From Candidatus Woesearchaeota archaeon (lineage in GTDB: Archaea; Nanobdellota; Nanobdellia; Woesearchaeales; ARS49), in NCBI GenBank assembly GCA_030750765.1, contig JASMHM010000004.1, positions 3,013-67,012 on the forward strand: a stretch of DNA of 64,000 bases, in the 5' to 3' direction. The notes under the pieces are model-generated. The model ran no database searches, was not told the DNA's origin, and saw nothing but the letters and a program-made list of their open reading frames with translations. Both the position numbers and the translations under genes were made by a program. Of this stretch, positions 46,554 to 51,195 are shown piece after piece (the first letter of the stretch is position 1; every line of letters begins with the position of its first letter).

Positions 46554-47365
46554 TTTCCTGGTGCCTAAAACCCTTTTGGGCTTTATGATTATCCTAAGCC
46601 ATTTGGGGCAAATAAAGCTATCGTTCCCTGTTAAGGCTCACTTTTGCCTTTCTGCAGTCTAAACGCCTTATTTTGGCCTTTTGGCCCTGCTTATGTCCCT
46701 TTTTGTCTGTATTTGCTCTTTGCTAGCTATGACTCAACGCTCACTTTTTACTCTTACGGAGGTATTTTAGCCTAGAATGGCCTAGAAATGGCTCGAATTA
46801 GGGCGTTTTCCCGACTTTTCCTTAGATATGAACGCTCACTTTTTAGGAATAAGGCGTAGTATTGGCCTATTTTGGTGTTTTGGGCCTCCCTTTTAGCCCT
46901 CTTTTTGGCCTTTATTTGGCCCTATTTTGGCCCCTTGTGGGTGGTTGATTTTGGGTGCTTTTTTGGTTATTTTTTTGATCCATTTTGGGTTGTTTTCTGG
47001 CCTTTTTTTTGGGCCCGTTTGGGGTGATTTTGGGGGTTGTTTTTCCCTGTATTTTTTCGCATTTTTTCGGTGAATTTTTGCCCCGTTTTTTCGCCCCAAA
47101 AATGACTGATTTGTAACTACTGTGCCATACTAAACGGATTTTGGAAAAATCCGGAGGATATCCGAAATAGTCTCGTTTCATTCCCAGGATAGTCCCATTT
47201 CATTCCCATTATGGGGTTTCTGTCGTCGACGTTCATTCCCAAAACGTTCCCAGGTCATTCCCAGAACGGTCCTGGGAATGTCCGGATAATCTCCGGTTTT
47301 TTGATTTTCGCGAAAATTTTCCCGCACCAAAATCTATATTAAGGAGTTCGCGTTTCCTCCCAAAC
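46554..47365. repeat. 812-bp non-coding, T/G-skewed repeat region: iteron-like TCAACGCTCACTTTTT copies, ~11-bp phased T-tracts (46870-47095), TCATTCCCA array (47176-47280)
   Basis: No credible ORF on either strand; the minus-strand K/P/G-rich ORFs are repeat translations. Repeats read directly from the sequence. Confidence 0.6.
47176..47280. promoter_or_regulatory. array of four direct TTCATTCCCA repeats plus one inverted copy (CCTGGGAATG) upstream of the wHTH gene at 47366
   Basis: Copies at 47176-47186, 47198-47208, 47231-47241 and 47254-47264; inverted copy at 47271-47280 forms CATTCCCAG-N7-CTGGGAATG. Confidence 0.5.
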
Positions 47366-48034
47366 ATGATGTTTTTTGGAGGGGGCAAGATAGCGAAGCT
47401 CGACGAAAAAATCGAGGCGCAAGCCCAACGCAATCGAGCGGACATGGATGTGCTGTTCCATTGGGTGCATTATCTGAACGCTCAAAACGAGCAAACCCGA
47501 CGATCTTTTGAACATTTTAGCCAAGCGATGCAGCACGAGGTGCATGCCCTTACCGAGGAGCTCAAGGGTGTTAGAGACCAAAAATTGATTGGCGAAAAGG
47601 CTCCTTCCACCGACGATGTGAAGCAAATGGTGGACCGTCATATGCAGGCGATTCCCGTCGATACTATGCTCGCGAGGCTCCGTCACATGGAGAGTTCAAT
47701 CCAGTTTATGGATCAAAAAAGACAGGTTGTCCAGCCCGTTGCGCACCCTGCGCCAGCACCCGTTCCCACGTCGAATTTGCAGCACAGATTGGTCAAAAAA
47801 ATCACCCGTCACAGCAAAAGTTACATCAAGAATTCACTCGTACAATACATCCAAAAATACGGCAAGATTTCTGCGCTCAAACTGCGAGATATCGTCGTGG
47901 ACGAGCAAGGATTGTGCAGCAAAAGCACGTTCTACCGGCTCCTAGAGGAGTTGGAGCGAGACCACAATTTAGAGGTTATTGTCGACGGGAAACAAAAAAT
48001 GTTTATCGCACCAAACGAGGTCAAACATGCGTAA
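47366..48034 (+). CDS. coiled-coil + C-terminal winged-helix DNA-binding protein (candidate initiator/regulator)
   Basis: C-terminal …ISALKLRDIVVDEQGLCSKSTFYRLLEELERDHNLEVIVDGKQKMF (wHTH). Confidence 0.55.
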   Translation: MMFFGGGKIAKLDEKIEAQAQRNRADMDVLFHWVHYLNAQNEQTRRSFEHFSQAMQHEVHALTEELKGVRDQKLIGEKAPSTDDVKQMVDRHMQAIPVDTMLARLRHMESSIQFMDQKRQVVQPVAHPAPAPVPTSNLQHRLVKKITRHSKSYIKNSLVQYIQKYGKISALKLRDIVVDEQGLCSKSTFYRLLEELERDHNLEVIVDGKQKMFIAPNEVKHA

Positions 48035-48548
48035 ACCGGACCAGCGCATGCTGGCCCATGATAGTGCTTTATCGACGCTGGGCGCTGCCCTAACAGACGT
48101 CAGAGGAGAGCTTGATGACTACCGCGAACACCTCAACGAAGAGACTAACGAGATCCAATCATTGTACGAATACATCCACAACGTCGAGGGAAAACTCGAT
48201 CGTGCGCTCAGTCGACTCGACGAGATCGCACTTTTAGTGAAGGGAAAGAAGCCACATCAGAAGTGGGTTTTCACGCCTCTGACAGCGAAGGAGAAGGAAG
48301 TCTTCCAGATGCTCTACACCTTAACAGCGTCGAGACCTTTCGTGCATTACAAGGAAATGGCAACCAAACTCAACCTGAGCAAACAGCTTCTAAGCTCGTA
48401 CATCACCGTGCTTATCCAGAAGGGTATTCCCGTCGAGAAAAAGTATCAAAGCAACCAGGTATTTGTGCGATTGCATCCAGAATTCAGACAGGCACAAGCC
48501 AAGGACAATATCGTCGGTGTCAACACGCTACTCACGTACTGGACTTAG
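48027..48548 (+). CDS. second coiled-coil + C-terminal wHTH protein, similar architecture to the upstream gene
   Basis: Start ATG at 48027 overlaps the upstream stop (ATGCGTAA). C-terminal …KEVFQMLYTLTASRPFVHYKEMATKLNLSKQLLSSYITVLIQKGIPVEKK. Confidence 0.55.
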   Translation: MRKPDQRMLAHDSALSTLGAALTDVRGELDDYREHLNEETNEIQSLYEYIHNVEGKLDRALSRLDEIALLVKGKKPHQKWVFTPLTAKEKEVFQMLYTLTASRPFVHYKEMATKLNLSKQLLSSYITVLIQKGIPVEKKYQSNQVFVRLHPEFRQAQAKDNIVGVNTLLTYWT

Positions 48549-49015
48549 TCTTCCTTTCCTTGTCGTAACTTGTCTTTTTTGATCTCGTTTTGTAACTCTT
48601 CGATTAGCTTGAAACTGTTGTCTACGTGGTTCTTGATTGTGGTCTCTGCTCGACGGAAGGCGTGCTCTAAGGTGTTGCCATTAAGCTCATAGCCAAGTAT
48701 CACTTTTCCCGACGAGACAAAGCTTGTTTTCTTGAGTATTTGCAAGTCTAACCACCTCTTAAGATGGTCGTACATGGTCTGCCTTTTGATACTTGCTGAG
48801 GAGGCCATATGCTCGACGGGCATGACTGCTATTTCGGGCTTTTTCTCTCGATTGCTTTGCTTCTTCCTTTCGTACAATTCGAGCAACAAACTGTGCATTT
48901 GCGCCTGTCCATCTTTCTTGCGTGGAACGAGCCCAAAACGAGATAGCAAGGTTTTTGCCATGTCTTCGTGGGTGGCGTTGGTTGGTGCGTCGGATTGTTG
49001 TAGTTGGATGTGCAC
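48545..49015 (-). CDS. wHTH DNA-binding protein, hypothetical
   Basis: …SIKRQTMYDHLKRWLDLQILKKTSFVSSGKVILGYELNGN…. AGTTTAAATAGC box 20 bp upstream. Confidence 0.55.
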   Translation of the reverse strand: MHIQLQQSDAPTNATHEDMAKTLLSRFGLVPRKKDGQAQMHSLLLELYERKKQSNREKKPEIAVMPVEHMASSASIKRQTMYDHLKRWLDLQILKKTSFVSSGKVILGYELNGNTLEHAFRRAETTIKNHVDNSFKLIEELQNEIKKDKLRQGKED

Positions 49016-50462: not shown

Positions 50463-50489
50463 GATGTTCTGTAAGGGATGCGCGCTATT

Positions 50490-50876
50490 TTAATATGTCC
50501 TATAGGTGGGGCGAAAATCGGCCCTTCTGTCTGGGGGCAATCTTTTGAGGATCTCAATGCTGATGGGGTGGAAACCTTCTTTAGGGGGCTCGCTCAGGAT
50601 TTCTGCCTTGATGGCCAAAAGCTCGTCGAGAAACTCGCCTCCGTCTTCGCTATGAGGCACTCGCCATGTTCCTTGCGTGTAGCCCCAGTCTAGCAATGGT
50701 TGCAAGTTCTCAGGGGTGTCTTTTCCGATGTATACGAACAGGTCTCTGACAAAGGCGAGCACGCCATTACTGCGGTTGTACTTCTGTGCTGCACAGGGCA
50801 TGATGTCTATGTTTCTGCGCTCACCCTCGATTATCTCGACGGTGCCGTACGCTTGTATAAAGTTGTTTAAGCTCAT
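50490..50876 (-). CDS. small protein, paralog B of the same family
   Basis: 128 aa: KYNRSNGVLAFV…YIGKDTPENL…VPHSEDGGEFL. Confidence 0.55.
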   Translation of the reverse strand: MSLNNFIQAYGTVEIIEGERRNIDIMPCAAQKYNRSNGVLAFVRDLFVYIGKDTPENLQPLLDWGYTQGTWRVPHSEDGGEFLDELLAIKAEILSEPPKEGFHPISIEILKRLPPDRRADFRPTYRTY

Positions 50877-50913
50877 GGCAAAAAAGGGCCCTCTTTCGAG
50901 GGTGGCCTTAGTC

Positions 50914-51195
50914 TTACTGTAGACTTCGGAGGTATTCTCCGCCGTCGTTACTGTGTGGCACGTAGAAGCTGCCTGGCTCGAAGTTTAGTGCTTCTAGCAC
51001 TGCTACATTCTCGCTGGTGTCGCGTCCTATGTGGACGTCGCAATCTTGGTCTACTGCGACTAGTACGCCGTTGTTGTGGCTGTACTTTCCTCTGCTGTCT
51101 TTTCTACCTTTCTCAACGGTTTCGTTGCCTCTAAGGCCTTTTCTTTCAGTTGTGCCTGTTACAAGCACGAAGTTTTCAATATTCATTGTTATCAC
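50914..51195 (-). CDS. small protein, paralog C of the same family
   Basis: 93 aa: KYSHNNGVLVAV…HIGRDTSENV…VPHSNDGGEYL. Confidence 0.55.
   Translation of the reverse strand: MITMNIENFVLVTGTTERKGLRGNETVEKGRKDSRGKYSHNNGVLVAVDQDCDVHIGRDTSENVAVLEALNFEPGSFYVPHSNDGGEYLRSLQ

Follow-up and report, generated by a model that had tools for sequence, protein, structure and literature searches.

Gene content of the locus and its conservation

The stretch of DNA analysed here, hereafter the window, comprises 64,000 nucleotides (nt) of a Candidatus Woesearchaeota contig (JASMHM010000004.1, positions 3,013-67,012), and all window coordinates given below refer to its forward strand. The subject of this report is a locus in which three genes for small winged-helix proteins, designated A, B and C, lie between two long non-coding arms, with a methyltransferase gene on the left and a gene for a PAC2 proteasome-assembly chaperone on the right [Table 1]. 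The original prediction had taken the region for a repeat-flanked accessory island built of two outsized non-coding stretches, three winged-helix genes, two of them coupled, and a tandem trio of paralogous small genes. Each of these components was found. The two gaps free of open reading frames (ORFs), 46554-47365 (812 nt) and 49016-50165 (1150 nt), are the largest in the gene map of the window, whose other intergenic gaps are nearly all shorter than 200 nt and reach 326 nt at most. The repeat families of the arms are real, eight of the ten CTCACTTT sites of the window falling within 46480-50161 where ~0.23 would be expected (4.0 sites per window, from shuffles). The winged-helix genes are supported by AlphaFold2 (AF2) models for A and C and by HTH_11 and HTH_24 matches for B, and the 8-nt overlap between A and B makes their translational coupling probable. 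The composition of the arms (41-43% GC) is also unusual: in tetranucleotide distance they rank at the 100th percentile among windows of equal size, which makes them outliers; the A-B-C genes, at the 89th percentile, are not. The T+G skew, described earlier as strong, is present but moderate: it amounts to 0.60 and 0.59 in the two arms against a window mean of 0.51 (standard deviation 0.057; ~1.5 standard deviations above) and is surpassed by a coding stretch at 19.8-21.5 kilobases (kb) with a value of 0.67.

Database searches returned 53 relatives of protein A (27-86% identity), some of them labelled as Woesearchaeota or Aenigmarchaeota metagenome-assembled genomes and none with a Pfam family. 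In the alignment of this family (29 members, 26-86% identical) the N-terminal helix is conserved, the coiled coil varies, and the C-terminal domain (SK.YIK...KYGKISALQLREIVVDEQGLCSKSSFYRLLEELE) is near-invariant. The AF2 model (predicted local distance difference test score, pLDDT, of 81) has helices at residues 6-74 and 82-120, which a disordered linker connects to a winged helix at 137-214. The structural neighbours of this winged helix are generic (Hop2-WH, Fur, BlaI, ArsR), with TubR at rank 45. In the B family, HTH_11 is matched by 18 and HTH_24 by 13 of 38 members, and the family profile finds GerE in the PDB at E 3e-4. Within the N-terminal half of B (window 48027-48200), the conserved segment REELDDHR.AINENT.EIQ matches the heptads of the P22 tail-needle protein gp26 (PDB 4lin) and phrog_5328; as the gp26 coiled coil is trimeric, B may oligomerise as a trimer rather than as a dimer. 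Protein C stands out by its conservation, with 414 relatives (67-98% identity among the 120 matches listed) and 64-84% identity among the 37 family members aligned, as opposed to the 26-86% of family A. In a set of 1.8 billion representative proteins, the C family accounts for just 57 clusters. Its AF2 model (pLDDT 92) places the winged helix between an N-terminal helix and a C-terminal one of 40 residues.

Searches of Pfam, PHROGs and NCBIfam with all proteins of the locus gave only weak generic helix-turn-helix or coiled-coil matches, and profile searches of the PDB with the A, B and C families only coiled-coil or GerE-type matches, with no informative relatives. The three proteins were also considered as paralogs of one another; no similarity was detectable between A and B or between B and C, the two of the three pairs that were compared. 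There is firm support for A, B and C being predicted sequence-specific DNA binders with oligomerising coiled coils. Their families are without a Pfam or NCBIfam model, and no relationship to any known initiator or partition protein was detectable.

The comparative analyses below rest on a scan for gene-A relatives with one genome per species, which found them in 191 species-level Woesearchaeota/Nanoarchaeia genomes. Eighty of these loci were fetched (81 including that of the window) and oriented on gene A, so that positions such as -1500 are relative to the A start. The fetched relatives are titled mostly Woesearchaeota, Nanoarchaeia or Nanoarchaeota, and many are titled 'uncultured Methanosarcinales'. 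They fall into two clades, to one of which gene C is confined; the loci with C form the clade of the window, and the 38 loci without C, where no C homolog was found at the equivalent position, are referred to as the sister clade. The relative L100, whose A protein is 86% identical to that of the window, served as the reference for motif conservation in the left arm.

Gene order in the fetched loci is kept as methyltransferase, long gap, A-B(-C), long gap, and further downstream PAC2. B adjoins A in 78 of the 81 loci and C follows on the opposite strand in 43; 58 loci have the PAC2 gene 2.7-8 kb downstream, and 41 have the methyltransferase gene upstream on the minus strand. Three distant relatives have the same gene order, with long gaps of 480-1390 nt at the same places. 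A rearranged form of the locus was noted in L063, L065 and L093, where A and B are divergent and the methyltransferase and PAC2 genes have exchanged sides. Conservation among strains is closer still: 12 contigs of the same population from different marine samples, compared over window positions 44000-53000, are 99.96-100% identical over up to 9 kb and all collinear, with no inversion, empty site or circular junction. These near-identical contigs (L001-L012) originate from Tara Oceans, Joint Genome Institute (JGI) and other marine metagenomes, and seem to derive from a marine population of Woesearchaeota that is cosmopolitan and nearly clonal.

The A-B-C locus is thus a single-copy, vertically inherited chromosomal core locus of the Woesearchaeota/Nanoarchaeia (DPANN archaea) and not an island. 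The idea that a replication module of a plasmid or virus was integrated here, or an extrachromosomal replicon captured, would fit the plasmid-like layout of iterons, AT-rich tract and small DNA-binding proteins, joined in the sister clade by a tyrosine recombinase and its site; the slot beyond the right arm is variable in gene content, here holding the trio; and the capture of extrachromosomal replicons is an accepted source of some archaeal origins (PMC4010727). Such an origin of the locus is nonetheless highly improbable in view of its identical chromosomal position in 80 species, the ordinary composition of its genes, the lack of relatives of A and C in IMG/VR or PLSDB, the identity of the sister-clade recombinase (a housekeeping XerA equivalog, not a phage integrase) and the uniformity of the strain contigs, which show neither excision nor inversion. 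Any capture would predate the order, and the locus is therefore core genome today. A recent mobile element or accessory island was rejected on the same synteny, composition and database results and for want of a recombinase, the absence of an integrase from the window having been confirmed by a tblastn search with XerA. Tn7- or Mu-like transposon ends were also considered, the orientation of the Box1 repeats described below being similar; no transposase, a fixed position and no polymorphism among strains speak against them. A perfect 17-nt inverted repeat that spans the locus (46553-46569 and 50071-50087) was examined as an inversion switch and dismissed on account of the 12 collinear contigs. 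Nothing pointed to the defence locus that had been suggested as another option, the PADLOC library not having been searched.

Of the paralogous trio and the A-B-C locus, which had together been read as an island, only the trio is species-specific accessory DNA, the rest being core genome. The paralogy of the trio was borne out by 29-30% identity and by invariant motifs (NGVL, DT and HS.DG; in fuller form NGVL.FV, DT and (V)PHS.DGGEYL). Among 5.8 billion proteins its family is represented by only six clusters, which apparently stem without exception from this population or from very close relatives of it. Neither the trio nor the gene for a 123-amino-acid (aa) protein that follows it has a counterpart in any relative, and the truly accessory part of the locus is accordingly restricted to 50166-51713; gene content in this slot after the right arm differs between related species.

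Repeat arrays and promoters in the two arms

The most widespread repeat, Box1, has the logo AAcNCTCACTTTT. An unbiased count of 7-mers revealed an 80-fold enrichment of CTCACTT in the DNA upstream of A, where 72 of 77 loci have two or more copies; L063 and L065 have no exact CTCACTT between -1700 and -200. A left cluster between -1500 and -250 from A (~4 copies per locus) contains 309 copies on the plus and five on the minus strand, and a right cluster at +2250 to +3750 is mostly on the opposite strand, over a background of 0.006 per 250 nt. Conservation of Box1 is limited to a 13-nt core, with unconserved flanks and a spacing of 40-300 nt, as fits a protein-binding site. Half of the copies of the left cluster (146/292) lie within the upstream minus-strand coding sequence. 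They occupy two different reading frames there and the encoded peptides vary, which indicates that selection acts on the DNA. A role of Box1 as a promoter element was rejected, given these intragenic copies and the loss in L100 of the TATA-like sequences found 5' of Box1. We note that the CTCACTTT 8-mer also occurs directly 3' of a tRNA-Val gene of the window (40721-40728); the other three transfer RNA (tRNA) genes lack Box1, so that this copy is probably a coincidence and a function of Box1 as tRNA trailer or terminator was discarded.

Together with A/T-rich DNA, Box1 forms two mirror-image modules that flank A-B(-C), each of them a Box1 array leading into A/T-rich DNA and pointing inward. 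In the window, the left module consists of four plus-strand copies, one of which lies within the methyltransferase gene, followed by phased T-tracts, and the right module of three minus-strand copies followed by a 72% AT segment. The latter sits between a plus-strand Box1 at 49642 and a minus-strand Box1 at 49894. Of 29 genomes in which the most AT-rich 120-nt segment of the ~20.6-kb locus was located, 21 have it in the right arm and one has it in the left. The segment (74-94% AT) is placed directly left of the first inverted Box1 in 43 of 53 loci, at a median of 123 nt from centre to motif, and 109 inverted versus 17 forward Box1 copies were counted within 1 kb to its right. A forward Box1 within 400 nt on the other side of the AT maximum, as in the window, was seen in only 10 of 53 related loci. 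AT segment and inverted Box1 occur in both clades, and where extra genes separate B from the right arm the two have moved as a unit. The switch in Box1 polarity is marked in the window by a palindromic triple of Box1-like units [Table 1] and in twelve C-type relatives by a fixed 36-nt convergent pair, CTCA(C/T)TTTT-N18-AAAAGTGAG.

The second motif, Box2 (consensus yAkTCCCA), is confined to the ~325 nt upstream of A, where it forms an array from about -324 to -55 with a mean of nine copies on the A strand and three inverted ones (~12 in total per locus). Over 76 loci, a spacing of 11 nt was recorded 186 times and one of 10 nt 71 times, with an excess of multiples of 11. Of the twelve YAKTCCCA sites in the window, six fall in 47179-47280. 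The Box2 array, the Box1 cores and a TATA-like element before A are perfectly kept in L100, the DNA between them having diverged, with insertions and deletions. About half of the arrays read GTCCCA rather than TTCCCA; arrays mix the two variants, and the signal of covariation between Box2 variants and A or B residues is confounded by phylogeny. Placed ~30 nt before the A start codon and conserved, the TATA-like element is the probable promoter of a leaderless A-B transcript, in which case the left arm would not be a 5' untranslated region. Between Box1 and Box2 lies the block of phased T-tracts, with TTT autocorrelation peaks at lags 11-12, 23-24 and 34; similar blocks are present in L017 and L100.

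That A, B and C are autoregulators, possibly global regulators, and the arms their operators, insulators or terminators for the convergent A-B and C genes would agree with the resemblance of the proteins to MarR, ArsR, Lrs14, Fur or GerE-type regulators and with the position of Box2 next to the A promoter; judging from the sequence, the plus-strand T-runs would also end rightward archaeal transcription. Elaborate transcriptional control of this kind is, however, distinctly unlikely to account for the locus as a whole. Four to seven Box1 copies, half of which are intragenic, are separated by 0.5-1.5 kb from every promoter of the locus, the inverted Box1 and the A/T-rich tract persist in the clade without C and move with inserted genes, and ~2 kb of non-coding DNA in small genomes with gaps of tens of base pairs (bp) exceeds what autoregulation needs.

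A third motif, Box3 (CTGGTGCCTAA), has the core GTGCCTA, extended to TTTCTGGTGCCTAA, and the 17-nt inverted repeat of the window is a pair of Box3 copies. Box3 was found in all 28 C-containing loci examined, at ~4.8 copies each, and at ~1 copy in loci without C. A further motif, TTTTCCCGAC / AAATCCCGACA, was noticed in both arms and near the C start (window 46803-46822, 49050-49085 and 49215-49235). A related 13-mer, TTTGTCGGGATTT, is shared by 20 of 28 C-containing loci and by none of 23 that lack C.

There is thus firm support for regarding the arms as arrays of predicted binding sites at the DNA level. It is very improbable that they encode non-coding RNAs or small proteins instead. The left arm does fold better than shuffled sequence on both strands (z -3.0 and -4.4), and gene callers place ORFs of 54-90 aa in the arms. 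DNA palindromes such as the Box2 dyads would, however, produce the same folding signal, and the ORFs are not kept as proteins, the best case reaching 42% identity, in a relative with 86% identity in protein A. An Rfam scan of the whole window at the gathering threshold found four tRNAs, none within the locus, and a scan of 46300-51400 at E <=10 gave a single chance-level match (E = 7.2) and no non-coding RNA family in the arms. Conservation is moreover limited to short motifs of variable spacing and copy number, and Box1 continues into coding sequence.

Table 1. Coordinates of genes and sequence elements in the window (positions on the forward strand; a dot marks features given without strand).
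Feature	Position	Strand	Remarks
Methyltransferase gene, PrmA/MTS-type	45951-46553	-	Left flank
Box1 copy 1 (TCAACGCTCACTTTTT)	46474-46489 (site 46480)	+	Within 5' part of the minus-strand methyltransferase gene; kept in L100
Box3 left copy (TTTTCCTGGTGCCTAAA)	46553-46569	+	Identical in L100
Box1 copies 2-4	46631-46844 (cores 46637, 46740, 46835)	+	Cores invariant in L100
Phased T-tract block (TTTTGGCC-like units)	46860-47100	+	Period ~11.5 nt; between Box1 and Box2
Box2 array	47155-47281 (copies 47181, 47192, 47203, 47236, 47247, 47258)	+	One 11-nt register
Inverted Box2 copy	47273-47280	-	Forms palindrome CATTCCCAG-N6-CTGGGAATG
TATA-like element (TCTATATTAAGG)	47330-47345	+	~30 nt before A start codon; conserved block in L100 alignment
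Gene A, 222 aa	47366-48034	+	N-terminal conserved helix, coiled coil, linker, near-invariant C-terminal winged helix
Gene B, 173 aa	48027-48548	+	Coiled coil and HTH_11 / HTH_24 / GerE-like domain
Gene C, 156 aa	48545-49015	-	Winged helix and long C-terminal helix
Proximal right arm	49016-49700	+	T/G-rich DNA, C TATA-like element, Box3-like copies, one plus-strand Box1
C TATA-like element	~49035-49050	-	25-35 nt from C start
Box3-like copies	49519-49533, 49585-49600	-	Proximal right arm
Single right-arm plus-strand Box1	49642	+	
Palindromic triple of Box1-like units (AAAGTGGC GCCACTTTT GA AAATGTGGC)	49700-49735	.	At Box1 polarity switch
A/T-rich segment, 71.7% AT	49734-49853	.	Second most AT-rich 120-nt window of the 64 kb
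Right Box1 cluster	49887-49894, 50043-50050, 50154-50161 (sites 49894, 50050, 50161)	-	Three inverted copies
Box3 right copy	50071-50087	-	
Paralogous trio, 98 / 128 / 93 aa	50166-50462, 50490-50876, 50914-51195	-	29-30% identity
Gene for 123-aa protein	51342-51713	+	Hydrophobic, signal-peptide-like N-terminus; follows trio
PAC2 proteasome-assembly chaperone gene	51710-52414	-	Right flank
orc1/cdc6 (Cdc6_lid, AAA_22 domains)	33905-34969	+	82 nt upstream; 326 nt downstream with short ORFs

A recombinase and dif-like sites in the sister clade

In the sister clade, 33 of the 38 loci carry a tyrosine recombinase in the same slot of the locus (32 with a second XerA query), as do none of the C-containing loci. 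This protein corresponds to the archaeal XerA equivalog NF040815; three of the six proteins scanned scored above its 220-bit cut-off (252-275 bits) and three below. Sixteen loci without C also possess a dif-like site, AGTTCGTATAA-N6-TTATACGAACT, matched at 17 or more of its 22 positions where shuffled sequence reaches 16 at most. In such loci xerA and a dif-like site are neighbours, for example at +1651 (L078), +1418 (L082), +1675 (L086), +1399 (L091) and +4207 (L096) from the A start. In those sister-clade loci for which Box1 maps were drawn, the site lies between the forward and the inverted Box1 clusters, so that Box1 points toward dif. The window has no dif-like site at 15 or more of the 22 positions, and C-type loci have neither xerA nor a conserved dif-like palindrome within 10 kb, Box1 and Box2 still being present. 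A palindrome at 49760-49787 of the window was considered as a candidate dif and set aside, as it is unconserved in relatives.

The sister-clade arrangement shares with the archaeal XerA/dif system of Thermococcales the recombinase and the 11-6-11 design of the site with its TATAA-N6-TTATA core (PMC4640148; PMC2958812), to which the Box1 arrays point in the loci mapped; the clade of the window, in contrast, has neither component at the locus. In Thermococcales, dif is located 120-142 degrees from oriC, in putative termination regions, and polar sequences pointing to dif have been described in these archaea (PMC2958812). Unlike in the sister clade, the Thermococcales dif is not beside xerA, and the polar words are genome-wide 4-mers as opposed to the local 13-mer Box1 (PMC2958812).

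These features raise the prospect of a centromere-like site or terminus organiser, in which A and B would coat the Box2 and Box1 arrays and build a compact complex for segregation, positioning or dimer resolution. Plasmid partition systems such as ParR-parC and TubR-tubC have iterons at the promoter of their operon, and MatP-matS is organised around dif. The parallel to the first two is close, in that the Box2 tandem units, in 11-bp phase, abut the promoter of an operon for small DNA-binding proteins, six copies (47181-47258) lying upstream of the TATA-like element at ~47333 in the manner of parC and tubC iterons. Like parC and tubC, the array keeps to a helical phase (11-12 bp) and combines direct and inverted copies; unlike them, it comes with no cytomotive nucleoside triphosphatase (NTPase), is chromosomal and order-wide, and is accompanied by Box1 and Box3 arrays and an AT-rich tract. 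TubR figures, at rank 45, among the structural neighbours of the A winged helix, the XerA equivalog of 32-33 of the 38 loci and the sixteen dif-like sites toward which Box1 converges where mapped would suit a terminus organiser, as would the known archaeal precedent of polar sequences, and the missing GC-skew switch described below is no obstacle to a centromere. We nevertheless consider this explanation, the main rival of the replicator proposed below, rather unlikely. No NTPase of the ParA, ParM or TubZ type appears in the Pfam lists of the L001, L013, L015 and L017 contexts, A itself being a coiled coil and winged helix without an NTPase domain. The clade of the window keeps Box1 and Box2 without xerA or a dif-like palindrome within 10 kb, the A/T-rich tract beside the right Box1 array would not be needed, and Box1 is local rather than a genome-wide skewed word like KOPS (FtsK-orienting polar sequences).

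A candidate bipartite replicator

We tentatively favour, at a probability of roughly 0.4, a chromosome-maintenance nucleoprotein site in which the locus would act as a bipartite, origin-like replicator. Two polar repeat clusters around the genes of putative binders, one of them invading a neighbouring gene, and an A/T-rich tract in one half fit such a replicator. Under this proposal, A would bind Box1, the winged helix of A being near-invariant and Box1 invariant, and B, which is more variable, would bind the likewise more variable Box2 array, cooperatively coating one helix face and autoregulating its operon. C would bind Box3, with which it shares its phyletic pattern. The coiled coils would bridge the two arms into a looped nucleoprotein complex, strand opening would take place in the A/T-rich tract of the right arm, and the winged-helix proteins would recruit the replication machinery, or Orc1/Cdc6 itself might read Box1.

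This proposal is in line with the organisation of known origins. In their basic structure, archaeal origins have conserved repeats on either side of an AT-rich region and usually adjoin an initiator gene (PMC4010727), and in the window an AT-rich region does lie between repeats as in origins of the origin recognition box (ORB) type. In Pyrococcus, cdc6 is located between two ORB clusters, one of which is within the dp1 gene (PMC1904270). The likeness to this oriC-cdc6-dp1 region extends to two clusters of polar repeats ~1.5-3.5 kb apart around genes for DNA-binding proteins, one cluster running into a neighbouring coding sequence, an AT-rich segment adjoining the repeats, and a site that is unique in its neighbourhood and whose organisation is kept across an order (PMC1904270; PMC4010727). 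It differs from Pyrococcus oriC in that no ORB consensus is present here, the proteins are small coiled-coil winged-helix proteins and not AAA+ Orc1/Cdc6, orc1 is unlinked and there is no skew switch. A second parallel is the bipartite oriC1-dnaA-oriC2 origin of Helicobacter pylori, where unwinding occurs in one half only (PMC3479198); both have two clusters of sites split by a binder gene and an AT-rich element, the unwinding element in H. pylori, in one half. Looping has been proposed for the H. pylori origin and is suggested here by the coiled coils; H. pylori belongs, however, to another domain of life, and the present locus has no DnaA or DnaA boxes. The WhiP protein of Sulfolobus oriC3 (PMC4010727) provides a precedent for a non-Orc1 protein of winged-helix type encoded beside its repeats. 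WhiP is a Cdt1 homolog, unlike A, B and C, which are each made of one winged helix and a coiled coil, and no Cdt1-like match was found among the top structural neighbours of A and C. The only orc1/cdc6 gene noted in the window has no ORB-like repeats or AT-rich tract alongside, which we count in favour of a replicator at the A-B locus.

Several observations weigh against a replicator. In 30 genomes analysed with 10-kb flanks on each side, no consistent switch in GC skew was detected at the locus (mean -0.03 on the left and -0.01 on the right); the skew changes from negative to positive in five genomes and from positive to negative in one, most having the same sign on both sides. Gene strand does not switch either, the coding fraction on the plus strand being 0.38 on the left and 0.37 on the right. 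No orc1/cdc6 was found within 10 kb of the locus in the 80 relatives, that of the window being 12 kb away, and there is no gene for an enzymatic initiator or helicase nearby. Box1 is unlike the ORB and mini-ORB consensus (TTCC...GAA cores, e.g. TTCCAGTGGAA), a search for TTCCANTGGAA with one mismatch yielded two scattered matches in the window, which is chance level, and Box2 dyads such as TTCCCAG-N6-CTGGGAA are only loosely ORB-like, many species having GTCCCA. The presence of xerA and dif within the sister-clade locus counts likewise against it, and the assignment of each protein to a motif draws on co-occurrence and conservation only.

The comparison made earlier with winged-helix initiator genes beside iteron-rich DNA therefore holds for the layout, with its polar arrays and A/T-rich tract, and fails for initiator homology in A and C, whose structural models have generic winged-helix neighbours and none specific to Orc, Cdt1 or Rep. 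Among the findings that had been named in advance as speaking for ordinary core genome, conserved core synteny and the lack of initiator similarity in A and C were both observed; an explanation of the arms by known non-coding RNAs was not. A secondary or alternative origin is a live possibility for the locus. In the broadest form of the replicator proposal, which we regard as doubtful, Woesearchaeota-type DPANN archaea would replicate or segregate their ~1-Mb chromosomes from a bipartite replicator read by the new coiled-coil winged-helix proteins A and B, joined by C in one clade, rather than from an ORB origin adjacent to orc1, and the sister clade, with its built-in xerA and dif, would have a plasmid-like 'all-in-one' module.

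To our knowledge, neither the start of replication nor chromosome segregation has been studied experimentally in Woesearchaeota or other DPANN archaea, and a literature search returned no account of replication start, segregation or origins in these organisms, or of the motifs described here. New are the proteins and the motifs; a replicator- or centromere-type nucleoprotein locus, the function we infer for them, is of a kind already known. The hosts are uncultivated archaea with very small genomes, for which the locus provides a concrete, order-wide candidate for chromosome maintenance. It offers cis elements (Box1, Box2, Box3 and the A/T-rich tract), two or three dedicated proteins and, in the sister clade, a linkage to xerA and dif, a combination that makes the question testable without cultivation. 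If its role were regulatory only, the locus would represent an unusually large and conserved regulatory region for a streamlined genome. Should the locus prove to serve as origin or centromere, its proteins would constitute a new class of site-specific chromosome-maintenance proteins in archaea, and a chromosome could be said to carry its maintenance functions in a compact, plasmid-like arrangement.

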